Shown: positions 1 to 63,227 of the stretch, in pieces
Position numbering within the stretch: the first letter of the stretch is position 1
How the letters are laid out: every line of letters begins with the position of its first letter
IMG/VR virus record: IMGVR_UViG_3300020577_010124
Span: 64,001-128,000 of that record
Length of the DNA: 64,000 bases
DNA from: a virus
Taxonomy: Duplodnaviria; Caudoviricetes
Strand: one strand, 5' to 3'
Position numbers and translations under genes: made by a program
Notes under the pieces: model-generated
Databases searched by the model: none
What the model was told of the DNA's origin: nothing
What the model saw: the letters and a program-made list of their open reading frames with translations, nothing else

Positions 1-1
1 T

Positions 2-2986
2 CTAAGCGAAAAAACAACGCCTCCTACTGACGGTTCTACTCCTCCAACCCCTACTCTTCTCAAAGCAGGAGACAAGGTGTATGTTTCATATGTTGCGGCA
101 ACAAATCCAATGTTTCGTCATGCAAGCGAGAACATAACAAACTTCTTCTTGTTCCCTTCGCAAGACGCATATCAGTTGCCTCCTCTTGATTTGGTCAAGG
201 GCTGGAACTTCAAGAAGCATAAGTTCAAAGTTCGCAAGAACGAAGCTCAAAGAGCTATTATAGCTGACCTAGATACGGACGCAGCAATTCAAAAGCTTAT
301 CAATGATACGCAATCGGATAGCTCTCTGAATGCTGCGCAAAAAGCAACAAGAGTTGCCGAGCTTCAAGCAACCTTTCTTTTGGAAGAGATTGAAAGTCAA
401 CGGCTTATAGAAACTAAGCAAGAGCGAGCCAATCGAATACCTTTTATCAAAGGTTGTTATTTTGCTGATTCAAGAGGTATTTGTAAGGTTGAGCTAGTCG
501 GCGTTGGAACGGCTCAGGTTATAGTTCCAAGATCTCAAATCAAGGATCAAGCTTGGTTCGACCAGTTGCTGTTAGACTTGCAAGCGGACCCTGTTGGTCA
601 AGCCAATGGAGTCTTTGACGACAACGGTATACTGAATGTTGCTCAGGCAAATAGTTTCTTCTTTGACGATTTTTTGTTTGACATTAGCGATCATGTCAAT
701 ATGGTTTGCTATGATAATGAGAAGTATGGATATGAAAGAAGATTTGCTAAAGCTATAGCCAAATGCAAAATTTTTAACGAGAGCGATCCAACAAGCGGAG
801 TAGGCGCTCCAAATCTTGATTTCTTATTGAATGGCTCTCTCGATAGAGATCGTTTTGATTTGACAAGCGCAAAGTTTGATACGGTTCCAATGCAGGGGCC
901 TGCTCATCTATTTAGCTGTAACGTTACTTTTACCTATGACTTTGGCTTCTGTACTAAGGGAACAATCAATGCGGATATGATTCTAAGAACTCCGACGTTC
1001 TTCCAACAGCTTACTAAGAAGTCAAGAATTTATGTTGAAAGATTCAGTCCTCAGTTTCCGCTAAGACCAGACGGCGGTATTTGGGTTGGAACAAAACCAG
1101 CATTTCAGGATAACTATGCGGTTACGACAAACCCATTCAATTACTTTGGATATATAGTCAGCCCAGACGCTACGACGGGAACGACAAACTATAGAGTGTT
1201 TGAAGACGCTATAGTAAATCAAGAACTTGAAAATCTAAGCTATGACGCAACAACAGCAAGTCATTCATTGCCTGCTGTAGACGGTACTTTGACCGAGAAT
1301 AAAATCAAATACGTAGGCTTTGATAATATTCTAGGGGACCAACCTGGCTATTCTCGCGGAATAGAAATAACAACAGAAAACGCCCTACTTGTAATGAACA
1401 AGATCCCAAAAACTACAGTAAAAAGAGAAAAGTTGCAGTTTACGGTAAATGAAGAAACAGGCAGAGTAAACGTCTCAAGCTCGTCTGCTAAGAAAATACG
1501 CAAGATAGATTTCACATATGTTCCAAACAGCAGAGAGTTTTTGAACGAAAAGGACCGTTTGCTTTCTATTGTGTTTTCTAGTACCAAAACTGTTATAGAC
1601 AATGTTGCTCTACCATATCAAGGATTGTTCTCTACTAAAGAGCGAAAGGTGTCTGTTGATACAAGATATGTTTCTAGCGAAGGCTTTTTTATGGACGGAA
1701 ACATAATGAAGCTAATAACTATAACATCTGTAGAAATAGAGTATCTTGACGAAGTAGATTATGACAAGTACAAGTTTCAATCTTCCATTGTTTCAACGTG
1801 TTTTGATCCTTCTGGTAACTGGCTTATCTTTTATGAAGATCAAGACGGAGCCAATGGAGATACGAGCAAGAATGGATTCAATGCTGATGGTTCTCATTTA
1901 GTTGGACCTTTAGATTCGGGAGCTTTGCCTGGATTGCAAGATAGTACAGCCATAGAAATTTCTTGTTTGTATTCACAAGATTATGGCATTACATGGTTTA
2001 ATCATAAGGCAATAGTTAGAACGGTAGCAGGAGAAACGGTTAGTTCTCCTTATGCGGTAACAGACTATCGCTCGGGTAAAGTTCATTTGTTCTATGTTCT
2101 TAATGATACTTTGATGCACAAAGTTATCAATACTCATCTGCTAAAATATGAAGATGCTTTTCTTGGATACAAGCGACCTTTGGCATTGAATGAATCAACA
2201 AGCCTAGGTTATGGATTGTATCATTTTTCTGTGGCAGGACAGCGAATAAGAGAATCGCCAAGTAGCATTGTTATTGGAAATCTGGACGGAGATTATCTAA
2301 CCAAACAATTAGCTATAACTAAGAATCTTATTGCTAAGCAACGTAGCGACTATCGCTTCTTGGTTTCAGGAGATCTTGCCAACTATAGCGAGGGTTTTCC
2401 TGCGATTGATTTTGCTGTTTACAAAGATGTTGCAGGTTTGCTTAAGGTCATGTTTACAGCTAATGGAAAACTGTATTGTAGAGCTAGCGGAAACGAAGGA
2501 ACTTCTTGGTTTGACGTAATAAAGGATGGTATGCTTATTCATAAGAATAGTAATGTGCAAGAGCTAAAGTCTATAAATACTCTTGGCATAACTTTTGACC
2601 ATAAAACAAATAATAGCTATTTGACATATCAAGTAGACGGCATGCTTTTCCTGAGACGATTTGAGGCAGGTAATTCTATTGGTAATGATAAGAAAATTAG
2701 AGAAGTCTTGGGGCCAGATTCAAAATCTTCTAAGCCTATGTTTGTTATTGGTTCTCTAACAACAGAAGCAAAAACTGCCATTACTAATAAAGAAACGCCT
2801 ATTGCGTTTCCATATGACGACGTAGATTTCTTTGGAGAGGCTTTATCTATATCGCAAGTTCCATGTTTGGGATATGTAACAGCTAGCGGTATTCCGAGAT
2901 TTTTCTACAAAGACGCGCAAGGAACTTTTAGAGCATTCTCTTATCAAACAGTACCTATTCTTGATATAGGTTATAGCAAGGTGTAA
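2..2986 (+). CDS. Large virion protein with Asp-box (BNR) sialidase-like propeller; 5'-truncated by the window
   Basis: The frame is open from position 2 (LSEKTTPPTDGSTPPTPTLLKAGDKV), so the GTG at 77 is probably internal. Asp-box motifs SQDYGITW (~1972-1996) and SGNEGTSW (~2486-2509). Confidence 0.6.
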   Translation, partial: LSEKTTPPTDGSTPPTPTLLKAGDKVYVSYVAATNPMFRHASENITNFFLFPSQDAYQLPPLDLVKGWNFKKHKFKVRKNEAQRAIIADLDTDAAIQKLINDTQSDSSLNAAQKATRVAELQATFLLEEIESQRLIETKQERANRIPFIKGCYFADSRGICKVELVGVGTAQVIVPRSQIKDQAWFDQLLLDLQADPVGQANGVFDDNGILNVAQANSFFFDDFLFDISDHVNMVCYDNEKYGYERRFAKAIAKCKIFNESDPTSGVGAPNLDFLLNGSLDRDRFDLTSAKFDTVPMQGPAHLFSCNVTFTYDFGFCTKGTINADMILRTPTFFQQLTKKSRIYVERFSPQFPLRPDGGIWVGTKPAFQDNYAVTTNPFNYFGYIVSPDATTGTTNYRVFEDAIVNQELENLSYDATTASHSLPAVDGTLTENKIKYVGFDNILGDQPGYSRGIEITTENALLVMNKIPKTTVKREKLQFTVNEETGRVNVSSSSAKKIRKIDFTYVPNSREFLNEKDRLLSIVFSSTKTVIDNVALPYQGLFSTKERKVSVDTRYVSSEGFFMDGNIMKLITITSVEIEYLDEVDYDKYKFQSSIVSTCFDPSGNWLIFYEDQDGANGDTSKNGFNADGSHLVGPLDSGALPGLQDSTAIEISCLYSQDYGITWFNHKAIVRTVAGETVSSPYAVTDYRSGKVHLFYVLNDTLMHKVINTHLLKYEDAFLGYKRPLALNESTSLGYGLYHFSVAGQRIRESPSSIVIGNLDGDYLTKQLAITKNLIAKQRSDYRFLVSGDLANYSEGFPAIDFAVYKDVAGLLKVMFTANGKLYCRASGNEGTSWFDVIKDGMLIHKNSNVQELKSINTLGITFDHKTNNSYLTYQVDGMLFLRRFEAGNSIGNDKKIREVLGPDSKSSKPMFVIGSLTTEAKTAITNKETPIAFPYDDVDFFGEALSISQVPCLGYVTASGIPRFFYKDAQGTFRAFSYQTVPILDIGYSKV

Positions 2987-2988
2987 TA

Positions 2989-5900
2989 ATGTCTGACGGA
3001 TGTAAAGTACCAGCTTTTGCTTCTCCTGGGTGGCCAGGCAAGCTTAAGTTTAAGTGTATTCTTTGGCCTAACTGTCCTTTATACGAAAGAATCAGACAAG
3101 ATCAGACCTTCATCTTTTCTCCTGAAACTCTTACGTATGCGCCTCAAAAACTGAGAGACAAGATTGTTTCTATTGCTGGTGTTGACGGTGGGTTTTTGCG
3201 TCCTCGTCCTAACTTCTATCTACATAATTTTCTTTGCTTCCTCAAGCGAGGAGAATACCAATTCCAGCCTGGCGAAAAAGAAAATATAAATAGTCCGTAT
3301 TTTAAAAACATACCGTCATTGCCTAATCTTGAGTTCTTGGGTCTTGAAGACGCTCTTACTGCAAATGAACTTGTCTTGGAAGGAAACTCGGCTGTAAGCA
3401 GTTCAGCTATGGCTTCGCATCAAACGTGGCTGGCGGACGGAAGCTTGTATTGTACAGACAATGTTTTGCCTTCTGAATATGGTTCATCCCTTGTAAGTAG
3501 AGGCATAAATAATACAGCGAGAGCCGTTAGAGAGTATTTCTGTACAGGATGGGAATACATAACCCAGAAAGTTAGCAACCCTGTAGGTACCAATGGTAGT
3601 AGCGTTTTAACTACTAATGAAACTAAACTAACATCTGTTCATATGCCTTCTGTTACAGGAATAGCCAGTTCTGATGATCCTGTGCAGGTTATGAAAGATA
3701 ACAACATTGAAGACGTATTCAAAGTTTCTGGAAGCGAAAACACATACCGAAATATTAACCCAGGACTTCATTGGAGAGTTGTTAAAAGAACGCCACTATT
3801 CCAAGGCGAAGATTTTGTTATTGAGTTTAGAAAAACAGCTACTGAGGGAGTCTCTAGCGTTAGTTCTACGGCTAAGTTTAGAATGCTCGATAGGTTCAAA
3901 TATCTTGACGTATATACCTTTAATCAACAACTGTTGTGCGGTTCTCTGAATAATGAAGGCTTCATAGATTTTGATAAGAAACAGCAGATTATCGAAGATA
4001 CTCGTAAGGTTTTCGATTTTAGCCGTCAGATTTATTACATGATCGAAATAGGTAAAGACGACCCTGATCATCATTATCTCATAATCATTGCCGAAAACTC
4101 ATTCCCTATATTTTGTCATATAGGCAAGACTCCTTATCTAAGATGTACGCTAAGCTTTACTGGATCTAATTCTAACCCTCCGCCTGCTCCATCTAGAGAT
4201 GCCTCGTCTCCAAGAGATTGCGCAGAATCTACAGACCAAGCGAAACCAGGCGCTAGTACGGATAATGGACGATTGGGAGAGTTTCTTGTTGTAGAAAACC
4301 CTGAAGATCTTGTTCTTCGTAAGCTTGGAACTTATGACGGAGCAAGTTCGTTGACTTTGCTCAAGCAAGACAAGCTTAGGGTATCTATCCGTCAGCATGG
4401 CGGAAACATGATTGTTACTTTTTCTGGACACGAGGATAATCCTTGGGTTGTAAGTCGCAAAGATCTAGACCCAAACTCTACGCCTTCAGGACAACCTGTA
4501 ACAGAAAGCCAAGTTGCTTATAACGTTATCAGAATGCAGATTCCTGAAGCGCAAATAGCAATCATGGGCGGTAACATAAAGACTGCTTTCTCGTTTGTTC
4601 CTCAGCTTTATGATCGAATCGACAACTACACAATGCCTCAGCCTTTTTCTATTGGCGGTCCTGTTAACGTTGACGAGGTTCAGTTTCTATGGAGAGATAA
4701 GGCTATTAGCCAGAATCCAGAAGTGTCTATCAATCAAACGAAGAAATGGCACTACACGAATGAAGCTGGCGAGTATATTGAAATTGCAGTTGACGACGGA
4801 AGAGGAACTCCTGTTGGTATATCTTCTAGCGGTTCCTTTGAAAGAACGGCAGCAAAGCCAGTTCAGATATTGGCTACAGAAGTTCAACCAGAATGGGTTT
4901 TCAAGTATGGTAAAGCTCCTGATATGGTTGATAGTCAAGAAGCTCGCAAAAATGGAATACAACCGTCTGCTTTGATTGTCAATGCATCAGAATGTACGAC
5001 AAGCGCAGGCTCTGTAGCAAATACAAGTAAGCTTATGCAGGCTTCTATATCTGTTGTGCCTGGCGGGTATTTGTTCTACGCTATTGACGGAGGAGAACCG
5101 TGGGCTTTGCAGGGTTGCGTTACTCCAATCGTTTACAATCTACGTTTATATGTTCCGCCGAAAGGATGCGTTTTCAACAAGAGTCCTATAGACGTAAGCC
5201 AGCATGTTCTTACATTTAGCGATGAATGGTCAGAAACAGATTTTCAAAAGCTTGAACATCAAGGTTCTATTTCGTTCCTTATCAGTCAAGGAATGAAGTT
5301 CCCTAATAACCAATCAAACTATTTGTCTCAGCTAAACGGTAGAGCATTCTATCTTCAGATAAGCATGTGGTGGGAAGATGGTATTATGCCTCGTCCTATA
5401 GACGAACAGGATAAGATCATTTTCACTGGATTCTGTGCTGGTGGAGTTATTGCAACTGAAACGAATAAGAAAATACTTGAATGCAAGCTATGCGACTATT
5501 CAAAGATTCTGAAAGATCAAATGTTCTTTAACTCTCCTTACTTTGATAGAATGAGAGATGTTAATGCTATACGAGAAATACTTCAGCTTTCAGGATTGAG
5601 AGACGGAGAGGATAATCAATCAACATTTGAGCCAGGTTCTCTTGTAAGGATTCTTGCAGACTCTGATCCCAAAGACGAATGGTATACGCTGTTCTTTAAT
5701 GGAGAGAAGTTAATAACTAGAGAGTTTGCATTGCCAGGCTCTTATGATATTCTTCAGTCTCCATTCTTACGATTTACTGACGGTCAACCATATTGGGATG
5801 CTATTGAAAAGATAGCCTTGCTTGCTAATAAGGTAGCTTACTTTGACAGATTTGGAGTTTTCAATTTCACTGCATTGCCATACGATCAAGAACTCTTTGG

Positions 5901-6528
5901 CGGACAACAGGGTTCAGAAACTAATTGGGACGTTCAGGATTGGGGAGAGCTAAGCAAGGCTGACTTCTTCGCAACTCCAAAGGGCGCTTTGAATTCAGAC
6001 GGTATGCAGCTAAATAGACAGATCGTTGGAGATTATAAAGTTGAGAGAATCGTCTCTGATGTTGTAAACGAGATTAAAGTTATATCAACGTCTCCTAATG
6101 GAGAAATCTTGATTGCAGGGCATGTCAACTACGCTTCTTTGCATGATCCTGATTCTCCAGGCTTCTTGGGTTATAGAAAGCCATTCTTGCAGATGGATGG
6201 TATCTTTGGTAGCGAAGCAAACGTTAAGTGGATGGTCAAAAACTATACAAGAATGTTTATTCCGCCGCTAAGGGTAACATTTAGAGCAATTGGTAGAAAC
6301 AATATCAAGGCTTTGGATGTTATAACTTTTCAGCCTCTTGGTTCAAGGGAAAAGCAGCCTTTGATTGTAAGTTCTATAAAGAGCGAAGTAAACGCGGAGA
6401 ACGGTACTTGGTTCCAAGACTTTGAGTGCCTATGGCTCTATCCAAGACAGAATGTTGATTGGGGTTCTACTAATGAGGTTGGAATGGGTCTTGATGGTTC
6501 TATATCAGGAAATAACGTAGGAGGATAA
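2989..6528 (+). CDS. Baseplate hub-like protein (gp27/gpD/Tal-type C-terminal region) with long N-terminal extension
   Basis: The C-terminal ~440 aa follow the hub pattern: IDVSQHV...IIFTGF...LECKLCDYSKILKD...GQPYWDAIEKIA...YFDRFG...VNEIKV...GRNNIKALDVITF...IVSSIKSEV. Confidence 0.65.
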   Translation: MSDGCKVPAFASPGWPGKLKFKCILWPNCPLYERIRQDQTFIFSPETLTYAPQKLRDKIVSIAGVDGGFLRPRPNFYLHNFLCFLKRGEYQFQPGEKENINSPYFKNIPSLPNLEFLGLEDALTANELVLEGNSAVSSSAMASHQTWLADGSLYCTDNVLPSEYGSSLVSRGINNTARAVREYFCTGWEYITQKVSNPVGTNGSSVLTTNETKLTSVHMPSVTGIASSDDPVQVMKDNNIEDVFKVSGSENTYRNINPGLHWRVVKRTPLFQGEDFVIEFRKTATEGVSSVSSTAKFRMLDRFKYLDVYTFNQQLLCGSLNNEGFIDFDKKQQIIEDTRKVFDFSRQIYYMIEIGKDDPDHHYLIIIAENSFPIFCHIGKTPYLRCTLSFTGSNSNPPPAPSRDASSPRDCAESTDQAKPGASTDNGRLGEFLVVENPEDLVLRKLGTYDGASSLTLLKQDKLRVSIRQHGGNMIVTFSGHEDNPWVVSRKDLDPNSTPSGQPVTESQVAYNVIRMQIPEAQIAIMGGNIKTAFSFVPQLYDRIDNYTMPQPFSIGGPVNVDEVQFLWRDKAISQNPEVSINQTKKWHYTNEAGEYIEIAVDDGRGTPVGISSSGSFERTAAKPVQILATEVQPEWVFKYGKAPDMVDSQEARKNGIQPSALIVNASECTTSAGSVANTSKLMQASISVVPGGYLFYAIDGGEPWALQGCVTPIVYNLRLYVPPKGCVFNKSPIDVSQHVLTFSDEWSETDFQKLEHQGSISFLISQGMKFPNNQSNYLSQLNGRAFYLQISMWWEDGIMPRPIDEQDKIIFTGFCAGGVIATETNKKILECKLCDYSKILKDQMFFNSPYFDRMRDVNAIREILQLSGLRDGEDNQSTFEPGSLVRILADSDPKDEWYTLFFNGEKLITREFALPGSYDILQSPFLRFTDGQPYWDAIEKIALLANKVAYFDRFGVFNFTALPYDQELFGGQQGSETNWDVQDWGELSKADFFATPKGALNSDGMQLNRQIVGDYKVERIVSDVVNEIKVISTSPNGEILIAGHVNYASLHDPDSPGFLGYRKPFLQMDGIFGSEANVKWMVKNYTRMFIPPLRVTFRAIGRNNIKALDVITFQPLGSREKQPLIVSSIKSEVNAENGTWFQDFECLWLYPRQNVDWGSTNEVGMGLDGSISGNNVGG

Positions 6529-6529
6529 G

Positions 6530-6730
6530 ATGTCAAAGAACGCAGCTTCTAGTTTGTGGAATAATGTTAGAAAAGAGATTGATAAAAGTCGTAGCGCAAA
6601 CGAATCATTCTTGGCGATTAGAAATAACCGACAAGGCTATAGAAGCATGGGTATGTATCAGCTTTCTAAGAATAGCGCTTCGGAAGGCGTATTGGTCGTT
6701 GGCGTAACAAGAGGCGGAAAAGTAGGATAA
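6530..6730 (+). CDS. Small basic hypothetical protein following the hub gene
   Basis: 66-aa ORF that fills the gap between two large genes; GGAGG lies just upstream of the ATG. Confidence 0.6.
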   Translation: MSKNAASSLWNNVRKEIDKSRSANESFLAIRNNRQGYRSMGMYQLSKNSASEGVLVVGVTRGGKVG

Positions 6731-6733
6731 TAA

Positions 6734-18478: not shown

Positions 18479-18493
18479 CTAGAGGTAAGATAG

Positions 18494-20095: not shown

Positions 20096-20106
20096 TGGAG
20101 CAATAA

Positions 20107-24655: not shown

Positions 24656-24657
24656 CA

Positions 24658-43078: not shown

Positions 43079-43079
43079 T

Positions 43080-46595: not shown

Positions 46596-46599
46596 CTAA

Positions 46600-49500: not shown

Positions 49501-52500
49501 TCTGGCGTTCCTGTATCAAATGCTTTTGAGGGGAATATTCCTCTTCTTACTATTAGCAACCTTGGTTATCAGATTGTAAACGAGAATGCTCTTAGCTTGT
49601 CATGGGACGCTCCTGTAAAGTTCCAAAAGGATATTGAGGCTTGGTTTGATCAAAGAGTTGCATTGTACGCTCAGATTACAGACGAGTTTGGCGCGCCTAT
49701 TGCAGATAATAGTCAGATCAGCTTTACAGCAACTGCGTCTGTAGGGTCTGCTCAACTTGCGGAAGATGTTTTCGGAGAAACGATAAGCGGACAAGCATTA
49801 GTGCCTGACGCTAAGAGTTGTTTTATTCTGTCTTCTTCTTCCATTGGTAACGGATTCATTCGCGGCGTTTTCAGAATGACATCTGACCTTGATATACTAT
49901 CCGCAATTAATCAACTTTCAGCAGATGTTAGAGTTTCATATAGCATCCCTGATAGAGACAACCCAGGCTCGAACGTGTTTGAGTTTACTTCGCTTCCTGT
50001 TCATATAGAGATGGACAATCCATTCTCTATGGAAATGCTCAATATTGGCGATAATAACGGATTCTTTGGAGAAGGAACGTCTTCGGGACGAGGCTCTAAG
50101 AGACGAAGAAGAGGAAGTGGCGCGGCTCCTCATGTTGGTTCAGCAGCTACAAGCGCTGGCGGTGATACCGTTAAGGTTCTTTGCAAGAGAACGGTTCCGT
50201 TAGACGACCAATCCTTTATATCAAGCGGTGGTTTGGAGTTCGATCCTGATAAGTTCAAAGAATTCCCAGGCTGTTGGATAAGAAGAACAAGACCATTTGT
50301 ATCAAGAGTTGTTATTCTATATCGAGGAGAAGCGATTTCAAATGCTCCTGATTGCGACGTAGCAGTATTTGAAGCCTCGGACCCTCAGTGCGATCGAGAT
50401 GATAGCTCTAGCAATCCATGTTCTCAAAGCGGCGGAGGAGCTTCTAGTTCTCCGCCTGAGTTTGTTCCAGGCTTTTCTTCTCGAAGAAGTCGTTCGGTAC
50501 AACCTCCTGCTACTTCTTTGCCTTTCCGAACAGGCCTTCAGTTACTTAATGACGGAACAACAAAGCTCGTTTCATATGTTGATATACCTTTGAAAGCGCC
50601 TAGAACTCCGCAAGCTATCATGCTGTTTGCAAAAACAGGCTACAACGGTTTCTTTGCTCGCAAGAAAATGTATGTTGTCTTTGATAATATTCTAAGAATT
50701 GAAACAACTATTGAGCCGCCAGAATCAAATTGCATTGACGTTGCGGAGCAACAAGCTAAAGTCTACCTTATTGATCCAGATAGTACGGACGTAGAAAATC
50801 CTAGAAAACTGGCCGTTCCAGACAGTCAGATTGTTCGTTGGGAATTGAGAAAAGGAACAAGCGGTAAAGATAGGCCATTCTACTCGACAGATAATGTCCC
50901 TACAGGACCAGGCGTATTTTCTTATACAAGAAGCGGAAGCGCTAGAAAAGTATTCTTCGGTCCAGCATGTGGTGTAACATGGCTAACTTATGTTCCATGT
51001 CCAGGCAATATAATCTTGTTGCCTGAGCTTTATGCTATTAAGGCAAGCGTCATATACGACGGACTGCACGCCTTTGAAGAACGTCCAGCTATAGTTTACC
51101 CGCCAGGAGACGTAAGAGGTTTTGGATCTCGCTTCCTCATGCAGATGCCAAACTTTGTAAATGACATATACGCAGACGGATATGATCTAGCTCACGTTAC
51201 TATTTATCACGACCCTAATATTGCTAGTGGTCAGATTGCTGATTGTTTCAAGCAATGCGCAAGAGATTTCAATAGACCAATCTTCTCTTTGGGAAATGGT
51301 CAGATTGTTGATATCGAATCAGGTGGCGACTTTGAGATTCTTTATGGAGATTCGTTGCAAGTTACGTTTGACGAGGCGTTAGACGAGTATGTTATAACGA
51401 ATGCTTCTCAAGAAATTGGGTTCGCTCAAATACCTCTTGCTCAAAGCGGTAATCGCACTGACTTTTACATACGAATCAATAAGTTCCTTGGAAGACCGCA
51501 ACCAGTCAAACCAAATGATAATCAAGACCAAGATCCTCTTAGCAGCACAAATCAATGTTCTTGTATAGAAGTTCCACCTGGACTTTCTAGTAAAACTGAT
51601 TTGAAGATAATAACTGGAAAGACCAGTATTATGTTCAATGGTCAAACAAGATTCTTGTCAGGCGGAGGAGATCTAAAGAATGGCGTTCCTCCAACAACAA
51701 TTGCTCTTAGAGAGCCATTGGATATTTCCATTGTTGATATTCGTCGTAATGGAGAAAGCGTTGAAAAGATCCTATGCGACAGTTTGAGCGTTCATGAGTT
51801 TATTGTTGAAGTAAAGTTCAAAGATAAAGCGGTTCCAAATGGAACACCTGTATTCCTAACTGTTGGCGGAATTAATCCAGAGAAGATTGTTCTTTTCTCT
51901 GATACTATTTTCACGCAAAAACTCAATGATCCTATACTTAACCCAGAGGGCAATAAGAGAAGCTTTGCTTCATTCTTTGTTTATCCATTCAGCGCTCAAG
52001 CTGCATTCTCGGGTCAAGTACAAGCAGAAACCAACTATGATAAGCGAGGCGACGTTGTTCGTAGTATGACAGCTTGTATTACGATCAAGTATGATCCTTC
52101 AGAAAAGAAGCCAGAAGCAACAGTAACTCCTGAAGGCGAAATAAGTAGCGTCTTTAGCGGATCGCTAGATGTTTATGACACGTATACGGATACTTGGTCG
52201 CAAAAAGCTCTAATGAAGTACCCAAGAGGTTGCTTGACTCTTGACTGGTCTTTCGATGCGTATGGAGAACAACTCTATGCGATAGGCGGACTTAATGGAA
52301 AATCAATCTTATCATACAATGAAATGTATGATATTGCAAACGACATATGGCATACTAAGAAACAAATGAGAGTTGCTAGATTCTACCATATGTCTGTTCA
52401 AGATTCAGGCTATATCTACGTATTCGGAGGAATCGTTGCGGACGGTTCTGTTCTTGCTATTTCTCGTTCAGTTGAACGTTATGATATCGTAAACGATGTT

Positions 52501-55500
52501 TGGGAAGACGTTGCTAGCTTGCCTATATTTGGAGAGAATCCATACGGCGTAGCTATGGGCGCTTGCGTAAAGCTTGATAATAAGGTTTACATAATCGGCG
52601 GAATCAGAAAGATTGGACCGCAAGGCAGCATCGAAGCTATGAACGACAGAGTTCTAGTTTTTGATTTGGATACTCAAACATGGAGTTGGAGTTCAGTATA
52701 TGAGGATCTTGATCTAGCGCTATTTACTAGAATATCTCCTACCGCTTTTGCTGACAAGAATGGCGGGTTTATTCATGTTCTTGGAGGAGCGGTAGCGGGA
52801 GAACGAGACGCAGATACGGGCGCTCAATCTCTTGAGTTCTTGACTGATACTTTCAACATCAATATCTCAACCTTTGCTGTTGTTCAAGACGACTATTTGT
52901 ATGATAACTTGCCTAAGCCTCGCTATCGTAATGGTCATGCTCAAATCGGAGACATTCATTATTTCTTAGGCGGAACAAATGGTAAGTCTCAAGTTCTAAA
53001 TCTCTTTGAGAGCGTAGAAGAGACTTCTCCAGTCTTTACCGAGCAAAGACTAGAAAACATGCCTAAAGCAAAGACGGCTTTTGGTTCTACGTCTGATAGT
53101 TGGAGATATGTCTATGTTGGTGGCGGACTAACAAGCGGTAGGCCTGAAGGTTTCCTTCAGATATTGGCAGAGGCTAATCCTGGTTCTATAAGATTGGATG
53201 GGCAGCAGTCTGCGACAGTAAATATAGAACTAAAGAATGACGTAGGCGAACATCCTAATAAGAGTATTAGAGTATTGGTTCAAGGTATTGTTCTTTTCAA
53301 GAATGCTACAGCAAATCAAGACGGTTCTGGTGGGACTAATTCGCAGCAACAATCTGCAAACAGCGCCGCCCGAGATGCTTTGATATATCCTGTTGTCTTT
53401 AGTTCTAACGACTTTGTTATAAACAATGGCGTTGGAGCAACTATAATGTTGCCAAGATCCGAAGACATACTCAAGAAGGTTGATGAAATCAAGAGAAAAC
53501 TTGGAATTGTTGATCCAGTAACGGGCGATAACGGACAAGCAGAAGACAATACGCTTGTTATCAATGAAGGCGAAATTCGCAATCCATATACTATCAAAGT
53601 AAGAATAACTATTCTTGACGGATTCTATTATGGTCAAACCGTAATAGACATCAAAGATAATCAGGATTCAAGCGTATCTACAACTCCTGTTGAGTTACCG
53701 CCTCCAACCGAAACAACAACTACAGTTAGCACTCCTAGCGGGCCTCAAACTACGACTACAACTACCTTCTCTGGATGTAAAGAGGCAAGCGGCAGTCAGT
53801 TTGCTCCTATAGCTAATCAAGGTTCGCAAACGCCTACAACGGACGGAAGCAACGTTGTCATCGATCAGGGTTTGCAGCAGTCAGATAATCCTATATTTGA
53901 CCTAAACCCTTCTCAAGCTCCTCAACTTGATAGTCCAACGGTTTCATACTTCAGCGATATCGAATGGATACCTCAAGTTATTATTAGCGTAGATAACGGA
54001 GATTATGGCAGCATTATCAAAAATCTCAATAGAATGCGTAATGAAATACCATTTGGAGCTTCGCAACTTTATGACGCTCTTTCCAAAACAGCTTCTCTTA
54101 TGCTTGGCGAAGAACTTGATTCGTTTGCCAAATCAATCTATGTAAACACTGACAATGAGGAAAATCTATCCTTTGTTACTGTAGATACTGCTATTGAAGA
54201 TATACAAGCGGTTGACGGATTTGCGGAAACGCCTGTTTTGATAAACAACCTCTCTGTTGTTTTCCCTCTAACTCTATCTGCTCAGCTTGCTAGAACCGAT
54301 ACTGAAAATCTGGATAGAATCTCAAATGAAACAGGCGGACAAAGCCAAACGGTTATTGACGCAAGTTATATTGATGAAGTTCTAAACAATGCGATAGGAC
54401 GAGTAACGGGCTCAATTGGATGGGGCATTTATGAGTGCATAATCGACCTTGGCAAGAACTCTATTATCAATACGATAGCAATTGAGTGCGAGCTATATCC
54501 AAATACAGAGGGCAATTGGAAGATATCAACGAGCGAAGACGGATTCAACTATTCAGTTTATAGTGATCCATTCAATGTCAACAAAGACATACAACTAACA
54601 AACGTTGTTGGAAGATATCTAAAGTTCTCTATTACTCTTTTGAGCGGACTTAGCGCTTCCATTGAAAGCGAGTATGATCTTACTCCAACCCCAGGCGTTC
54701 CAGCTATAACTGGTATATTGATTGATTATAACATCCCAACGGAGAGTTTCATATATATGAACTCAGACGTATTGGATCGTAGTCCTCAACAAGTCGCTAT
54801 TGCTGTATCTGCAAACAGACCGTTGCTAAGCGAAATAGATGTTGGCGTTACAACTAGTAAGTCAACTAATTGGTCAGATTATTATAGCGGTTCTCAACCA
54901 TCAGTTGATAGATTCGGAAAGATATTTGTTCCTATTCGTTATACACAAACGCAAGATCATACTCTAGACGAATCTCTAGAAAACATTGACGGCTTTATGT
55001 GGAAAACAATCTATGGAAGATGGGATGTTACTTCTCAAGTAACAATCAAAGACGAAGATAACAATATCGTTGATCCAGATATTTATAGGCTGTATCCGCA
55101 AGAAGGAATGGTTATTTTTAACTCCAAGCAAACTGGTTCTTTCAGTATTTCTGTAGAGAATGCTGGACGAATCAAAGTTGGTTTGAGAGTCTTGAATAGC
55201 GATTCAGAACAAGCGGTTCAGATAAACGGTCTAGGCTATATGTATAACACCAATGTATTCTTGCCACCGCCTCTATCTCAGCGCCCTCCAACCGTTACGG
55301 ATTTCAATATTACTCCATCTGAACTGACAATATATCAGAAGATTGGACTAACCTATAGATACTTTGACATTAACCAACTTGACGAGCAGCTTGATAAATC
55401 CGAGATCAAATGGTTCATTAATGGTGTTGAAGTTGAGTATCTAAGAAATGTTCGAACATGGAATGATATAACAAATACGGAAGATCCTATTTGGATTTAT

Positions 55501-56340
55501 GCGTTTACTTTTAGCTCAAGCGATGTTCCTAGCGGAACAACCGTAGAACAATACGCTCGTTCTCGCGGCGAAAGCATACTAAAAGTAGGCGATAGCGTTT
55601 ACGCAACTATTCGAGCAAATGACGGAACCCTATTCAGCGAAGTAGTTCGTTCTCAAGCTCTTAGTGTTATAGAGGCTCCTCCGTTTATCTCTAACGTTAT
55701 AGTAAAGGGAAAGAGAAATGACGGTTCGCTTCAAGATACTGTAACAACTGCTACAAGAGCATTTGCTAGCTTTGCTTTCTTCCAAGACGGAACAGGAACA
55801 ACCAAGTCGCAGATCATCTGGTTTGTCAATGGTATTGAGTTCAAGAGAGGAAACCTCAATGAAATCGTTGGAGGTATTTCCAACAACGAAATTATTGTTG
55901 GAGAAATCAAGAACAACATTCTTGGTATAACTTTGGGCAATACTATTGAGGTTCAGATACTTCCAGTTTCAGGTTCTATTATTGGAAATCCAGTAACTAG
56001 TTCTCCTATCTCTGTAGAGAATGATCCTCCTTCTGTAAGAAATGTAGCAGTCAGCCCAAGTCCAACAGCTTCGTCGTCGTCAGCATTGCAGCTAACGTAT
56101 GTCTACGTTGATGTAGAATCTCAACAACAAGGCAGTACGCAGAACGACCAGAGTTCCGTCAAGTGGTATCGAGCCGCAAGGGGTTCAAGCGAGTTTGTAG
56201 AGGTTAGTTCTTTGCAAAATCAGAAGATTGTCCCTGCGGTGAATACCTCTTCGGGCGAGATGTGGAAAGCCGAAGTAATTCCATTCGACGGAATTAGCGT
56301 TGGCACAACTGTAGTAAGCAATATCATAACGATTATTTGA
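46600..56340 (+). CDS. Giant (3246 aa) virion protein with split VWA domain, LamG domain, FN3-like domains, Kelch propeller and C-terminal Ig-like repeats
   Basis: MIDAS VMDQSGS at ~47650; LamG GLWHFNEG...TMMAWIYP...WNHVAVT...FYING...FGKMTEL (~48165-48770); Kelch YAIGG, YVFGG, YIIGG, HVLGG, YFLGG, YVGGG (~52165-53140); second VWA half LYDAL...TDNEEN...ETGG (~54000-54350). Confidence 0.75.
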   Translation: MILTKASVFLRIVGNPSSLVSFVVPEEGFVSFDAANFSKLEQGDPYVVFDVVADDYYGSGYLSVGYKRLEYLWPTITYPITAEKTGKYNLFIRVKTSGEFFNFSLLINGVNLLDKIVTTPQNQWTWISLPLVIADKKKFDLSIIPKTEGCLIDSFHISVNDTLPDVIEYQNSFLTVHFRMYEIDSDYQPNISLPIYGYKTSIEDILDDNWYNFSLETLPAYISKTFNLHYAATLFVSGSSESLYIMWDYAQDNGFTLDPYLQTCSLVLDSDTKTWSIDCEKKFALRLYSSRDAIDENACKAIVPASALTTKTVKTFSTNTSPVFVNTKAVPTIENEEKVQLSLPDRIVSIVMDQSGSQTWNDSSGVRHELARRMVDKLNATYPGDLKYNLVNFQSTPIKINFFAVTENDNLNTSDAGAAASEFFEDQESGYAGVRIVRKQGSYPTGPLDGDIVTEGFLERAFSDGLEEGQEYYYAAYTFNSSGVFSEGTFIKATPRERILPHGVGNFTSRVIIGTGVRRDENTIGLWHFNEGIDQTIYDFSDTSFTLTSSDDFIWLNFSDVPSGTSGVRFNGTATRFVGTDSNGDFVKSHYTMMAWIYPFDFNSKRTIVSRESSSTSAVGFRFGINTNKTLFFTLDDSTIASSSALLTANQWNHVAVTVDVSGNVASFYINGYFAGSGTLAQGANHSVAAMNLYIGGRQSSFFGKMTELSIHDSLRSAAYIAEAAVQPETSTDKLLDNGDRLVLLTYVVSDDFNYPGGTVRILRKESVGPAVFDYATSSSGSSPQLVFKGFGAGPSHENDGDVVYETSASSGSFTIALPYDYVLDRTYNYRIYSSNVLGNFSSNSDSPTIPIKIPNFKTKAARNAAISMPLIAPVENATLTIGNHKNYITWDAVTDENAEQVLVYWSDSGFPIISNDQGVDAGAILVFSGKPSDTYVVDRNIDNQIVSYYAIVVADKYGFYSQPVFVSGVPVSNAFEGNIPLLTISNLGYQIVNENALSLSWDAPVKFQKDIEAWFDQRVALYAQITDEFGAPIADNSQISFTATASVGSAQLAEDVFGETISGQALVPDAKSCFILSSSSIGNGFIRGVFRMTSDLDILSAINQLSADVRVSYSIPDRDNPGSNVFEFTSLPVHIEMDNPFSMEMLNIGDNNGFFGEGTSSGRGSKRRRRGSGAAPHVGSAATSAGGDTVKVLCKRTVPLDDQSFISSGGLEFDPDKFKEFPGCWIRRTRPFVSRVVILYRGEAISNAPDCDVAVFEASDPQCDRDDSSSNPCSQSGGGASSSPPEFVPGFSSRRSRSVQPPATSLPFRTGLQLLNDGTTKLVSYVDIPLKAPRTPQAIMLFAKTGYNGFFARKKMYVVFDNILRIETTIEPPESNCIDVAEQQAKVYLIDPDSTDVENPRKLAVPDSQIVRWELRKGTSGKDRPFYSTDNVPTGPGVFSYTRSGSARKVFFGPACGVTWLTYVPCPGNIILLPELYAIKASVIYDGLHAFEERPAIVYPPGDVRGFGSRFLMQMPNFVNDIYADGYDLAHVTIYHDPNIASGQIADCFKQCARDFNRPIFSLGNGQIVDIESGGDFEILYGDSLQVTFDEALDEYVITNASQEIGFAQIPLAQSGNRTDFYIRINKFLGRPQPVKPNDNQDQDPLSSTNQCSCIEVPPGLSSKTDLKIITGKTSIMFNGQTRFLSGGGDLKNGVPPTTIALREPLDISIVDIRRNGESVEKILCDSLSVHEFIVEVKFKDKAVPNGTPVFLTVGGINPEKIVLFSDTIFTQKLNDPILNPEGNKRSFASFFVYPFSAQAAFSGQVQAETNYDKRGDVVRSMTACITIKYDPSEKKPEATVTPEGEISSVFSGSLDVYDTYTDTWSQKALMKYPRGCLTLDWSFDAYGEQLYAIGGLNGKSILSYNEMYDIANDIWHTKKQMRVARFYHMSVQDSGYIYVFGGIVADGSVLAISRSVERYDIVNDVWEDVASLPIFGENPYGVAMGACVKLDNKVYIIGGIRKIGPQGSIEAMNDRVLVFDLDTQTWSWSSVYEDLDLALFTRISPTAFADKNGGFIHVLGGAVAGERDADTGAQSLEFLTDTFNINISTFAVVQDDYLYDNLPKPRYRNGHAQIGDIHYFLGGTNGKSQVLNLFESVEETSPVFTEQRLENMPKAKTAFGSTSDSWRYVYVGGGLTSGRPEGFLQILAEANPGSIRLDGQQSATVNIELKNDVGEHPNKSIRVLVQGIVLFKNATANQDGSGGTNSQQQSANSAARDALIYPVVFSSNDFVINNGVGATIMLPRSEDILKKVDEIKRKLGIVDPVTGDNGQAEDNTLVINEGEIRNPYTIKVRITILDGFYYGQTVIDIKDNQDSSVSTTPVELPPPTETTTTVSTPSGPQTTTTTTFSGCKEASGSQFAPIANQGSQTPTTDGSNVVIDQGLQQSDNPIFDLNPSQAPQLDSPTVSYFSDIEWIPQVIISVDNGDYGSIIKNLNRMRNEIPFGASQLYDALSKTASLMLGEELDSFAKSIYVNTDNEENLSFVTVDTAIEDIQAVDGFAETPVLINNLSVVFPLTLSAQLARTDTENLDRISNETGGQSQTVIDASYIDEVLNNAIGRVTGSIGWGIYECIIDLGKNSIINTIAIECELYPNTEGNWKISTSEDGFNYSVYSDPFNVNKDIQLTNVVGRYLKFSITLLSGLSASIESEYDLTPTPGVPAITGILIDYNIPTESFIYMNSDVLDRSPQQVAIAVSANRPLLSEIDVGVTTSKSTNWSDYYSGSQPSVDRFGKIFVPIRYTQTQDHTLDESLENIDGFMWKTIYGRWDVTSQVTIKDEDNNIVDPDIYRLYPQEGMVIFNSKQTGSFSISVENAGRIKVGLRVLNSDSEQAVQINGLGYMYNTNVFLPPPLSQRPPTVTDFNITPSELTIYQKIGLTYRYFDINQLDEQLDKSEIKWFINGVEVEYLRNVRTWNDITNTEDPIWIYAFTFSSSDVPSGTTVEQYARSRGESILKVGDSVYATIRANDGTLFSEVVRSQALSVIEAPPFISNVIVKGKRNDGSLQDTVTTATRAFASFAFFQDGTGTTKSQIIWFVNGIEFKRGNLNEIVGGISNNEIIVGEIKNNILGITLGNTIEVQILPVSGSIIGNPVTSSPISVENDPPSVRNVAVSPSPTASSSSALQLTYVYVDVESQQQGSTQNDQSSVKWYRAARGSSEFVEVSSLQNQKIVPAVNTSSGEMWKAEVIPFDGISVGTTVVSNIITII

Positions 56341-56341
56341 T

Positions 56342-57106
56342 ATGTCTAAAGAAGCATACTTCCCTACAACTGTAGTTGTTCTCTGTTATAACAACAGAAG
56401 TGTTACGGAAAAGTTTATGGAACTTTTCAAGGCTAACACAACTAACTACAATCTGATTATCATTGACAACGGTTCCTCTGATGGGACCGTTGATTATCTT
56501 AATGAAATCTTTCCTACATTTGAAGGCAATGCCGAGCTAATACTTAATCAAGAAAACTTGGGTGTCATTGGCGGACGCAACCAGGGTTTTGGAGAGTTCT
56601 TGAGTCAAGCTCCTTATCCAACAAAAGGAATGCCGTTTCGATATTCCGAATATTTATGCTTTCTCGATAATGATCAGTTTGTTAGACAAGGATGGCTTAC
56701 TCAATATCATGAGTTTATGCAAAAGGGTAACTATGATATGATAGGAGCGGACGCTTGGCTAATGGATTCAAAGTTTATGCCAAGACACAACTGTTCAAGG
56801 GCTGGGGAATCTTTTACCTATGTTGGTTGCGGCGGAATGATGATAAAGCGAAAGGTTGTTGAAGACCTAAAAGGCTTTGATCCTCAGTTTAATCCAGCAT
56901 ATTTTGAAGATCCTGATTACAACTTTCGCGCAAGAGAAAAAGGCTATAAGATTGGCTGGAACTATCAAGCTCGAATAACTCATCTTCCGCATCAAACCCT
57001 AGGCAAGTCAAATGATAGAATGAAATATTTTGTACAAAGCTTTGATAGGTTCAAGGCAAAATGGAAGGGTAAGGAATTTCCTGCCCTTAGACAAAATCCG
57101 ATTTAA
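56342..57106 (+). CDS. GT2 family glycosyltransferase (GT-A fold)
   Basis: VVVLCYN, IIIDNGSSDGT, ENLG...RNQG, FLDND, FDPQFNPAYFEDPDYNFR. Confidence 0.92.
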   Translation: MSKEAYFPTTVVVLCYNNRSVTEKFMELFKANTTNYNLIIIDNGSSDGTVDYLNEIFPTFEGNAELILNQENLGVIGGRNQGFGEFLSQAPYPTKGMPFRYSEYLCFLDNDQFVRQGWLTQYHEFMQKGNYDMIGADAWLMDSKFMPRHNCSRAGESFTYVGCGGMMIKRKVVEDLKGFDPQFNPAYFEDPDYNFRAREKGYKIGWNYQARITHLPHQTLGKSNDRMKYFVQSFDRFKAKWKGKEFPALRQNPI

Positions 57107-57110
57107 CTGC

Positions 57111-58226
57111 ATGAAGCTTTTAGTATGCACTAATTTTGCCCAACCCTTTCATACAGGCGGAGCCGAGAGGGTCGTTCAGCAAATAACAGAATCGCTTACC
57201 CAAGAACATAAATGGGAATGCTCTGTTCTATGTCAATTTGGAACTAAACCTATTGTTCATAATGGAGTTCAGGTAATTCCTATTGGCAATGCTCCCGAGA
57301 AGACTTTTCTAGATACTGTCGAAGCTATAAATCCTGACCATATCTTTGTTTACAGCGATTGGTATTCTCATTGGGAAACCTTGCTCAAGAATGCCGAAAA
57401 ACTTCGCGCAAAAAAGAGTATTGGACTGGTCGGAATGAATCGGATGCGTTCTCCGCTTACTGCCAACGCCTCAATAGCTCAATCATTTCGGTCTAAGCAT
57501 CATTTGTTCAAAGTATTAGCTCATGCAGACAAGTATATAGATGCTCAAACTTGTAGAGAATGGGGAATCCCTGTTTCAATTATACATAATGCAATAGACC
57601 TAGAAGAATTTTCTCCTCCAACTCTTGATTTTAGGAAAGTATACAATATCAAGACTAAGAAGATGCTTCTATGCGTGGCTAACTTTTTTCATGGTAAAGG
57701 ACAGGAATATTTACTTCCTATTATGAAAAGGTTATCAGACCAGGATGTAACTCTTGTGTTTATTTGTTCTACTTTGGCATTTCGTCCAGGAAACCTCAGG
57801 ATGAAGCAAATATCAGAGCAGATAACGAGAATGAATCTTCCTATACGCATTCTTCAAGATATCCCTCGATCTCATGTTATATCAGCGTATTTTGCCTCAG
57901 ACGCTTTTGTTTTCCCTTCGCAAACTGAATGCGGCCCCATTGTAGTTCTTGAATCTATGGCCGCAGGGAAGCCTTGGGTTGCTCTAAATGTTGGTCATAT
58001 CCCCGAACTCAAAGGGGGTATTTGCGTGCATTCCGTGCCAGGCAGGGGCGAATACCTAGCTTTTGACGATCGAGTTTCTACCGAGTTTGAAAGCGCAACT
58101 CGGAAACTGCTTTCGGATTCAACTCTTTCCGAGCAGATGGGCTTTGAGGGTCGGGCGCAAATAGGCCAAGAATACAATTGGTCGATTATAAGTAGACAGT
58201 ATAAAGAGTTTTTTGAAAGTGCCTAA
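57111..58226 (+). CDS. GT4 family glycosyltransferase (GT-B fold)
   Basis: Likely start is ATG at 57111 (MKLLVCTNF.P..GGAER); IHNAID; KGQE; DAFVFPSQTECGPIVVLESMAAGKP with an intact EX7E. Confidence 0.92.
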   Translation: MKLLVCTNFAQPFHTGGAERVVQQITESLTQEHKWECSVLCQFGTKPIVHNGVQVIPIGNAPEKTFLDTVEAINPDHIFVYSDWYSHWETLLKNAEKLRAKKSIGLVGMNRMRSPLTANASIAQSFRSKHHLFKVLAHADKYIDAQTCREWGIPVSIIHNAIDLEEFSPPTLDFRKVYNIKTKKMLLCVANFFHGKGQEYLLPIMKRLSDQDVTLVFICSTLAFRPGNLRMKQISEQITRMNLPIRILQDIPRSHVISAYFASDAFVFPSQTECGPIVVLESMAAGKPWVALNVGHIPELKGGICVHSVPGRGEYLAFDDRVSTEFESATRKLLSDSTLSEQMGFEGRAQIGQEYNWSIISRQYKEFFESA

Positions 58227-58953
58227 AGTAAGCGTCATAACTCCCGTCTACAACTGCGAATCCTTTGTCAAGGAATCGTTGTCTTCTGTTCTGAATCAAA
58301 CTTTTCAGGATTTTGAGTTCATCATTATCAATGATGGCTCGACCGATAAAACTCATGATATCGTCTCGTCCTTTAAGGACAAGCGTATTCGTTACATAAG
58401 TCATGAAGACAATAAGGGAGTTATGGAGAGATCGAAGGAAGCTATTGAGCTTGCCGTAGGAGAATATATTGCCGTCCATGACGGAGACGACGTAAGCATG
58501 TCTATTCGCTTAGAGCAAGAAGTGGCCTACCTAGATGCTAACCCTGAAATTTTTTGCGTAGGTGGACGAGCAAAGAAGATAGACATGAATGGATTCTTCA
58601 TAGGAGACTGGGACTTCCCAACTCCTAATCATGACGACATTGTAAAGATGCTAAGGATACATAAAAAATGCCCTATCATCAATCCTACCTCAATGTACCG
58701 TCTTTCAGTCTATAACGAACTAGGCGGGTATTCTTCTCGCAAAGAAGTAGACGGCGCTCATGATTTCGACTTTTGGTGCCGAGCTATCTTGGCGGGTAAG
58801 AAGTTTCATAATATACAAGACTATCTGATCAAATACAGAGTAAACACAGAAGGCATGACTCGTAGACAGAAGCTAAAACAGTTTGCTGCATATAACACGG
58901 TCATGCTTGAATTTTTGCAAAGGATAAAGAATGTTCAACTTCACGGCTCCTAA
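58213..58953 (+). CDS. GT2 family glycosyltransferase
   Basis: KVSVITPVYN...SVLNQTFQDFEFIIINDGSTD...GEYIAVHDGDD...DFDFWCR. Start could be TTG 58213 or GTG 58219. Confidence 0.93.
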   Translation: MKVPKVSVITPVYNCESFVKESLSSVLNQTFQDFEFIIINDGSTDKTHDIVSSFKDKRIRYISHEDNKGVMERSKEAIELAVGEYIAVHDGDDVSMSIRLEQEVAYLDANPEIFCVGGRAKKIDMNGFFIGDWDFPTPNHDDIVKMLRIHKKCPIINPTSMYRLSVYNELGGYSSRKEVDGAHDFDFWCRAILAGKKFHNIQDYLIKYRVNTEGMTRRQKLKQFAAYNTVMLEFLQRIKNVQLHGS

Positions 58954-60124: not shown

Positions 60125-60157
60125 AGGAAATGCTAACAATTTTGTGAATAACATTGC

Positions 60158-61222: not shown

Positions 61223-61231
61223 GGAAGAATT

Positions 61232-61483
61232 ATGCCAGAACCAATTGATTACAATGCAATGACAGAGATCGAGTTCCTTAACAAGTCGGCAGCGACTATG
61301 GCTCGTCATGTAAAAAACATTGAGAACATGCTAACGATGATGCGCAATGGGCAGTTTATTGCTGCATATCAACAGTTGAGCGGAACTTATGAAGGGCTTG
61401 AGTATCTTAATCAAGTAACTAAAACTAGAGTCATCTTCAAGGGGGCAACTAGTGAAACTAATACAAACGCCAAGCCTAATTAA
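61232..61483 (+). CDS. Hypothetical helical protein
   Basis: 83-aa ORF with AAGGAAG upstream; fills the gap in the block. Confidence 0.65.
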   Translation: MPEPIDYNAMTEIEFLNKSAATMARHVKNIENMLTMMRNGQFIAAYQQLSGTYEGLEYLNQVTKTRVIFKGATSETNTNAKPN

Positions 61484-61691
61484 GTTGATGTCTGATCTAA
61501 AGACTCAACCAGGCGTATTCCCTAATGAGAATAATGACGGTCAAGGCGGATTGTTTTATCAAGATCCTGCCGATGATCCTCAATCCATTATAAAGAGATG
61601 GAATCGAAAACAGAGAGTTCCTAAGCAACGCATTTACCAGCTAGGAATAGACGTACCAAGTGTGATAAAGAATAAGCCAGGGATGTTATGA
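61452..61691 (+). CDS. Hypothetical protein
   Basis: 79-aa ORF (GTG 61452, or ATG 61488); its stop forms an ATGA overlap with the helicase. Confidence 0.55.
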   Translation: MKLIQTPSLIKLMSDLKTQPGVFPNENNDGQGGLFYQDPADDPQSIIKRWNRKQRVPKQRIYQLGIDVPSVIKNKPGML

Positions 61692-63226: not shown

Positions 63227-63227
63227 T

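Follow-up and report, generated by a model that had tools for sequence, protein, structure and literature searches.

What do glycosyltransferases (GTs) act on when their genes lie among the tail genes of a very large phage? The question is raised by a 64,000-nt stretch of DNA (hereafter, the window), which corresponds to bases 64001-128000 of the 170,562-bp IMG/VR virus record IMGVR_UViG_3300020577_010124 (CheckV completeness 34%). Within the window, one GT4-type gene (GT4-A) is found inside a block of giant structural-type genes, designated w01, w02 and so on in their order, and three more (GT2-A, GT4-B and GT2-B, together the trio) follow the last gene of this block. A first-pass annotation had proposed that the phage builds an elaborate baseplate/fibre complex and coats it with a multi-sugar glycan of its own. 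As judged from related genomes, the four GTs are ancestral core genes of a phage family, located at two fixed places in the tail module, and the best reading of their function, which we hold tentatively, is that they would glycosylate virion proteins. Because relatives that share these genes have genomes of 461-548 kb (with direct terminal repeats in three of them), the uncultured phage is taken to be a megaphage of ~0.5 Mb; the homologues come from aquatic metagenomes, Tara Oceans among them.

Glycosyltransferase genes in the tail module

GT4-A (10270-11367) codes for a soluble GT-B glycosyltransferase of 365 aa (PF13692/PF00534, phrog_2170). Like all the kept open reading frames (ORFs) of at least 120 aa on the contig, it is on the + strand. 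Its gene overlaps by 4 nt the stop of w03 (6734-10273), a fibre-type protein of 1179 aa with an NHL/propeller-like C-terminus, and by 11 nt the GTG start of w05 (11357-18478), a giant protein of 2373 aa with a carbohydrate-binding-like DUF642 domain; the ORF map thus agrees with the first-pass annotation, which had described an overlap with both structural neighbours. Matches to the Pfam families Glycos_transf_1 and Glyco_trans_1_4 (55.6 and 48 bits) are above the gathering scores, and no transmembrane helix was found in the protein. The AlphaFold2 (AF2) model, with a predicted local distance difference test (pLDDT) score of 94.4, is a complete two-Rossmann-domain GT-B fold with a template-modelling (TM) score of ~0.7 to GT4 structures; its best solved match in Foldseek is B736L of chlorovirus NY2A (PDB 3oy2), followed by generic retaining GT4 enzymes. 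The donor-binding features (the N-terminal Gly loop, R169/K170 and the GEGFG segment) are invariant in the orthologues, and the family, known from aquatic metagenomes, has 287 protein clusters, which are uniform in length. No significant pairwise similarity was found between GT4-A, GT4-B and a third GT4 encoded further upstream (see below), which rules out that the GT4 genes of the tail region are recent paralogues.

The linkage of GT4-A to the structural genes was examined by a profile search with w03, in which no GT was used as bait; this returned 25 loci, which were annotated against the window proteins, and of which 24 were assessable, the other being cut inside w03. In 22 of the 24, GT4-A is found directly between w03 and w05. 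The loci represent some 18 independent lineages, since some (G001/G003, L028/L029) are near-duplicates. In the most distant clades, the identity of GT4-A is 35-49% (for L057, 35% by alignment and 37% by BLAST), while that of w01, w02 and w05 is mostly down to 22-31% over long alignments; GT4-A is, then, better conserved than its structural neighbours. Moreover, w05 was found wherever GT4-A was found, and in the two exceptions, G009 and G010, neither of the two was found anywhere on the contig. The G009 contig stops 4.5 kb past w03 and the G010 block is reduced, and because both are fragments (14% and 23% complete, respectively), the joint absence of GT4-A and w05 is suggestive only. Loss of the linkage between GT and structural genes in relatives had been set beforehand as an outcome that would refute the proposal; the linkage is instead kept, most clearly for GT4-A.

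In some relatives, w03 and GT4-A are split by ORFs that code for HNH endonucleases (selfish insertions). Such ORFs were observed at the exact w03/GT4-A junction at L028:9388-10014, L054:11476-12414, L055:6718-7698 and L056:11459-12178, one of them with a CapR domain, which suggests repeated invasion of this junction by homing endonucleases.

The trio begins with GT2-A (56342-57106), a soluble GT-A glycosyltransferase of 254 aa, the ATG of which is located 2 nt beyond the last base of w15 (46600-56340), the last structural gene; here too, the ORF map agrees with what had been annotated. Next come GT4-B (57111-58226), a soluble GT-B glycosyltransferase, then GT2-B (58213-58953), a soluble SpsA-like GT2 of 246 aa without a membrane anchor, and then an exonuclease gene (58931-60124; phrog_284), which overlaps GT2-B by 23 nt, each of these genes overlapping or abutting its predecessor. 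The ORF of GT4-B opens with a TTG at 57030; the G002 orthologue aligns only from residue 28 and those of G001 and G003 from residue 1, and ATG 57111 is one likely start. GT4-B, a generic GT4 (65.9 and 60.2 bits in Pfam), and the two Glycos_transf_2 proteins GT2-A and GT2-B (65.3 and 109.8 bits, respectively) all score above the gathering thresholds. GT4-B has an intact EX7E motif (E300-x7-E308), GT2-A a DND motif (residues 109-111) and GT2-B a DGDD motif (residues 90-93) that is invariant in the orthologues. GT2-B also has a weak match to TarP and matches phrog_841 only over its N-terminal ~90 residues. No hydrophobic segment was found in any of the four GTs and, as far as sequence features tell, all four are probably active.

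Orthologues of GT2-A and GT4-B were found in all eight relatives with an annotated or aligned trio region, and in all but G006 they come directly after the w15 orthologue. The order giant gene, GT2, GT4, GT2, exonuclease, w20, helicase, methylase is identical in G001-G003; w20 (354 aa, no assigned function) forms with the exonuclease the stretch 58931-61222 of the window, where a replication-type block begins, and a ResIII/DEAD helicase and a D12-class adenine methyltransferase follow (61688-64000), the latter starting at 63228 (Pfam) and running off the window. In G004, G007 and G008, the genomes of which are complete or nearly so, the trio is found between the w15 orthologue and w20 with the helicase. 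For G005, placement was limited to GT2-B and the exonuclease, which lie as far downstream of w03 as expected, and in G010, GT2-A and GT4-B follow a w15-like gene and GT2-B is missing, the only such case. An exonuclease after the trio is a feature of the nearer clades and of G010, its place in G006-G008 being taken by an unrelated ORF of 157-178 aa (L066:14146-14682; L067:13877-14350). In G007, a DUF4238 gene and a gene for a 253-aa protein are inserted between GT2-A and GT4-B (L066:9973-10944).

The same genome also carries an upstream glycosylation island, which codes for a transferase polyprotein of 2990 aa and a Ser-rich collagen-like fibre. Among the relatives, the polyprotein is found only in G001-G003; in G004-G008 it gives only domain-level matches to single-domain, transferase-sized frames, several of which are those of the trio. 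The fibre has strong matches only in G001-G003, a partial one in G006 and a marginal one in G004, and is absent from G005, G007 and G008. Since the island is thus confined to the close clade or patchy, whereas the four GTs of the window persist across the family, we take the latter to be the ancestral set, independent of the island.

Candidate substrates and rival explanations

If the GTs glycosylate virion proteins, they would be made late, in the host cytoplasm, alongside the tail proteins, to which short glycans would be attached, and then extended, with nucleotide sugars of the host before or during assembly; GT4-A would most probably act on one of its neighbours, w05 or w03. This explanation builds on the observed gene order, domains and conserved position of the GT genes, and on the lack of membrane anchors and the catalytic motifs of their products, which are intact but for the second EX7E position of GT4-A. 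Overall, it is plausible, and the family-wide comparison strengthens it for GT4-A; for the trio it is less firm. A more specific version, in which an ancestral system is dedicated to the giant tail-tip appendages, GT4-A initiating on w05 (with which it would be gained and lost) and the trio extending the glycan, is possible, and we regard it as doubtful.

Three Ser/Thr-rich stretches had been named as plausible acceptors in the first-pass annotation, and all three are present: the Ser-rich C-terminal tail of w12 (38489-38677), part of w14 (43197-44910) and a Pro/Thr linker in w15 (53653-53796). The stretch in w14 consists of seven Ig-like repeats of ~82 aa on proline linkers, and is not a disordered mucin-like region. 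None of the three is conserved: the Ser tail is missing from the w12 orthologues, the Pro/Thr linker recurs in one relative only (G002), and w14 itself is variable, being absent in G002 and replaced in G003. Since the GTs are conserved and the named stretches are not, a conserved target must lie elsewhere, and these stretches themselves are unlikely to be it. Of the 40 Asn residues in the w14 repeats, 25 are in N-x-S/T sequons (13.5 expected, z 3.9), with no enrichment of the reverse motif; this statistic is inflated, because the seven repeats are homologous copies and the counts are not independent. N-glycosylation sequons were rejected as an acceptor signal, as no enrichment was found in the structural proteins other than w14.

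The lack of conservation of the named stretches weighs against glycosylation of virion proteins, and so do several other observations. The acceptors of GT2 and GT4 enzymes are mostly lipid-linked, polysaccharide or small-molecule, and the nearest solved folds are generic (sucrose-phosphate and glycogen synthases, PimA, BshA and WaaG for GT4; chondroitin synthase, SpsA and TarS/TarP for GT2). The multi-sugar coat on tail proteins that the first-pass annotation proposed is an inference; the two families cannot separate protein from lipid-linked or polysaccharide acceptors. In GT4-A, the EX7E motif reads E250-x7-Q258, the second Glu being replaced by Gln in 19 of 20 orthologues and by His in the other. 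The description of the block as gap-free and co-transcribed holds, and the apparent gaps at 6529-6733 and 61223-61687 are filled by small ORFs, so that tight packing runs on into the exonuclease, helicase and methyltransferase genes; however, because the whole contig is co-directional and packed, co-transcription is not specific to the GTs and the structural genes. (A promoter and terminator scan around the trio gave fewer sites than in shuffled sequences.) Furthermore, since the contig order is syntenic end to end among close relatives, the conserved linkage is in part simple inheritance. As for the trio, it comes after the last giant gene in nearly all relatives, as linkage to the structural genes would have it, but it borders replication genes and is detached in G006: there, at least 6 kb of unrelated genes lie ahead of GT2-A, and six minus-strand ORFs and a + strand ORF of 439 aa lie between GT2-A and GT4-B, and still GT4-B and GT2-B run into w20 and the helicase. 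The trio is a conserved module-boundary element, tied at least as firmly to the replication block as to the structural one.

Enzymes of the GT2 and GT4 families with these nearest relatives normally use host-type glycans as substrates, and the main rival is that the GTs, acting on the cytoplasmic side over a long infection, remodel host envelope glycans (lipopolysaccharide, capsule or teichoic-acid-type precursors). Superinfection could be blocked in this way, or progeny kept off debris, and the position in the tail module would then reflect timing or inheritance only. The multi-transferase sets of marine cyanomyoviruses are usually so read (PMC12801897), the automatic JGI name of orthologues is 'glycosyltransferase involved in cell wall biosynthesis', and all four GTs fall in the PHROG category 'moron, auxiliary metabolic gene and host takeover'. 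Nevertheless, the GTs all lack a membrane anchor, and neither a flippase nor a GtrA-type partner was found nearby; in addition, a host-takeover gene would not be expected to stay fixed between two giant tail genes across deep divergence, nor to be absent together with one of them, as GT4-A is with w05. We consider this rival unlikely. A further alternative is that GT4-A is not (or not only) a modifying enzyme, and either helps the tail to assemble or is itself a minor part of the virion, its GT-B fold binding, for example, a sugar nucleotide or a host glycan. Non-structural genes placed inside structural cassettes are often those of chaperones, and GT4-A is embedded in such a cassette, overlapping both neighbours; the substitution of the second Glu of EX7E points in the same direction. 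The invariant donor-binding features, the complete two-domain GT-B model (pLDDT 94) and, as is typical of an enzyme, a stronger conservation than in the structural neighbours argue the other way and make a role in assembly improbable.

The trio adjoins an exonuclease, a helicase and a Dam-type methylase, and stays with DNA-metabolism genes in G006, which raises the question of whether it could glycosylate modified bases of the phage DNA. GT-A enzymes resembling TarP glycosylate DNA with 5-hydroxymethylcytosine (bioRxiv 10.1101/2023.12.21.572611), and GT2-B has its weak match to TarP. However, known DNA-glycosylating phage enzymes accompany a ThyA-type hydroxymethylase, or a C5-methylase together with a Tet-type dioxygenase (bioRxiv 10.1101/2023.12.21.572611). 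The hydroxymethylase family PF00303 is absent from six of nine genomes with all four GTs (G000-G004 and G006), some of them 98-100% complete; G005 has a strong, full-length (1-266) match to the ThyA family, and G007 and G008 weak ones. The C5-methyltransferase family PF00145 is absent from all four genomes G000-G003, and PF12851 (Tet/JBP) gave no match in the same four, the positive control giving none either. No T4-type DNA glucosyltransferase was recognised, as Pfam gave only GT2 and GT4 families for the four GTs, and T4 beta-GT is not among the listed PDB fold matches of GT4-A. The strict avoidance of CCGG and the adenine methyltransferase, to which the first-pass annotation had pointed, are both borne out: CCGG is found 0 times, against 68 expected in the window and 173 on the 170-kb contig. 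AGTACT, CTCGAG, CCATGG and CAGCTG are also missing from the contig (12-20 expected each). The elimination of CCGG is private to this phage in the comparison with G001-G008, L044 and L059, and relatives with the same GTs avoid other sites (CGCG in G001/G003, GATC in G005, GGCC in G007 and GTAC in L044/L059). Because sites are avoided lineage by lineage, restriction pressure still shapes these genomes, the DNA of which stays exposed to restriction, and this argues against a general sugar shield. Thus, glycosylation of DNA by these GTs is unlikely on the genomic evidence, in agreement with the first-pass annotation, and the version in which the trio modifies phage bases is very improbable.

The tail-tip and fibre block

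Fourteen large non-enzyme ORFs are found between 1 and 56340, with 18,331 aa inside the window, in line with the ~18,400 aa of the first-pass annotation; the 15 structural-type genes that it listed are reached only when the GT4 gene is included. Upstream of the block are a volactin gene, a weak GT4, a tail-tube gene (Phage_tube_2, PF18906, phrog_290), chaperone-sized ORFs and, just before the block, a 1002-aa ORF that is a tape-measure candidate by position; the block is therefore in the canonical tail-tip/baseplate/fibre position. The weak GT4 is a third, divergent GT4-like gene (L001:9366-10559; genome 55366-56559), located ~600 nt upstream of the tail-tube gene (L001:11157-12221; genome 57157-58221), with a 143-aa ORF in between, and the tube protein ends in a Pro/Thr/Ser-rich tail of ~35 aa.

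The first gene after the tape-measure candidate codes for the tail-tip protein w01 (1-2986; 1290 aa), which starts 886 nt upstream of the window, has orthologues in all relatives (22-62% identity) and has no Pfam or PHROG match. It is followed by w02 (2989-6528), a structural-type protein of 1179 aa (orthologues 25-61% identical), and by a small + strand ORF of 66 aa (6530-6730), which fills the sole apparent gap inside the structural block ahead of w03. Downstream of w05, two ~530-aa Ig/DUF1573 proteins, w06 and w07 (18494-21684; ORFs 18494-20095 and 20107-21684), evolve fast (24-43% identity in close relatives) and are absent in G007; the DUF1573/Ig match is to w07. For w08 (21666-23249), the predicted fold is tandem FN3 plus a beta-propeller (AF2 model, pLDDT 81), with Foldseek matches to Sevenless/ROS1, contactin FN3 and T5 tail-tip chains; its 64 homologous clusters are metagenomic without exception, and an assignment as a baseplate wedge or hub protein was rejected in favour of this fold. 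Then come w09 (23246-24655; 469 aa, no assigned function), w10 (24658-25728; 356 aa, LamG/ConA-like lectin fold) and the giant w11 (25729-34011; 2760 aa), which has an Ig_Rha78A_N domain and propeller repeats.

FN3 domains precede the Ser-rich tail in w12 (34013-38683; 1556 aa). The next protein, w13 (38687-43078; 1463 aa), has no family match; for a GH56-like domain in it, a sequence search of the PDB gave no match at E <= 0.1. In w14 (43080-46595; 1171 aa), the seven Thr/Ser-rich repeats are accompanied by a Trp/Tyr-rich head, and the protein matches phrog_2155, 'virion structural protein', in five stretches. Finally, the 3246-aa giant w15 combines LamG_3 and a Kelch propeller with its Pro/Thr linker. 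No hydrophobic segment was found in any protein of the structural block, and PDB sequence searches with w03, w08, w10 and w13 gave nothing useful. A domain of ~110 aa is common to the N-termini of w03 (6734-7070) and w12 (34013-34350), and the N-terminus of w03 is 30-32% identical to those of the w12 orthologues in relatives; two different fibres probably dock through this shared domain.

No core baseplate fold was found among the block proteins, nor was any cultured relative, so that the structural assignment rests on context and architecture. Even so, the reading of the window as the tail-tip/baseplate/fibre module of an uncultured aquatic megaphage, with lectin-like and adhesin-type modular proteins, is well supported by its context, and the tail-tube and tape-measure surroundings, the lectin-like and adhesin modules and the PHROG virion-protein match uphold the earlier description of the block as a tail appendage.

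Searches with w02 and w08 gave no tblastn match among 50,697 phage records, and for this reason a close link to Bacillus phage G could not be shown; the match of w14 to the phage records is limited to an Ig-like stretch of two Synechococcus phages. Moraphages measure 307 kb or less (PMC12619734), and a tail block with GTs of this kind is not discussed in the papers on moraphages (PMC12619734) or on Mar_Mega_1 (PMC9723777). Two irregular records were also seen among the relatives. The 494-kb record of G001, classed as 'provirus', has its contig ends inside the tail block (L019-L023); joining these ends does not bring back w08-w10 or most of w11, which means that the record is not a simple closed circle at this point. 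In L034:1-21100, from a relative with a 187-kb contig, all the giant ORFs are split into many pieces of 125-600 aa, which reflects either many assembly frameshift errors or a decayed copy.

Significance and comparison with known systems

If the GTs are dedicated to the giant appendages, theirs would be the first glycosylation system of phages that is specific to tail fibres, as well as the first one outside actinobacteriophages. Sugar-coated receptor-binding appendages would then be a conserved trait of widespread half-megabase aquatic phages, with possible effects on host range and stability, on how virions stick to marine polysaccharide gels and on whether they evade recognition by hosts or grazers. 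GT4-A would then also serve as a compact, highly conserved marker gene for the family; as a soluble enzyme of 365 aa that can be expressed with fragments of its neighbours, it is a tractable entry point. If, instead, host glycans are the substrate, the four genes would be an ordinary auxiliary set in an unusual position.

The fold, Pfam families and motifs of the window GTs are common to GT4 enzymes such as PimA, BshA, MshA, WaaG and SdgB and to SpsA-like GT2 enzymes (a chondroitin synthase domain, SpsA and TarS/TarP), the acceptors of which are lipids, small molecules, polysaccharides or, for SdgB, Ser-Asp repeat proteins; the similarity does not say which of these applies here. O-antigen conversion of the GtrB type relies on C-terminal transmembrane helices and on GtrA/GtrC partners, in contrast to GT2-B, which has no hydrophobic segment and is flanked by a GT and an exonuclease. 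Like GT4-A, the chlorovirus protein B736L (PBCV NY2A) is a cytoplasmic GT-B enzyme encoded by a virus, and the two match in fold (Foldseek E 1.9e-16, TMq 0.70) and in sequence (E 2.5e-4); however, the two are only 14% identical, B736L is itself only a putative glycosyltransferase, and it belongs to a eukaryotic virus lineage and host.

A close parallel is with the actinobacteriophages. Capsid and tail-tube subunits of mycobacteriophages carry glycans (Freeman et al., 2023, as cited in PMC12619734), and, as far as that source summarises them, these systems likewise link phage-encoded soluble GTs to virion structural genes, with a proposed role in the decoration of virion proteins. In the same account, the glycans have been demonstrated, and they sit at the C-termini of subunits of the capsid and tail tube in small siphophages, whereas the system described here is known from its genes. 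Here, unlike in actinobacteriophages, the GTs are located among giant tail-tip and fibre genes of aquatic phages of ~0.5 Mb, and no conserved acceptor tail was found in the named stretches; the Pro/Thr/Ser-rich tail of the tube protein is reminiscent of the tube subunits of mycobacteriophages, for which glycosylation at the C-terminus has been reported. The relation between the enzymes is at the level of the family only: GT4-A is 25-27% identical to transferases of Streptomyces phages, and its nearest homologues in cultured phages have non-structural neighbours, namely ribonucleotide reductase and endolysin genes in Streptomyces phage Comrade and a transferase/methyltransferase cluster in Microcystis phage Mel-JY01. 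The concept of virion self-glycosylation is already known from actinobacteriophages and chloroviruses, and what is new is a family-wide, position-fixed set of four GTs in the tail module of aquatic megaphages.

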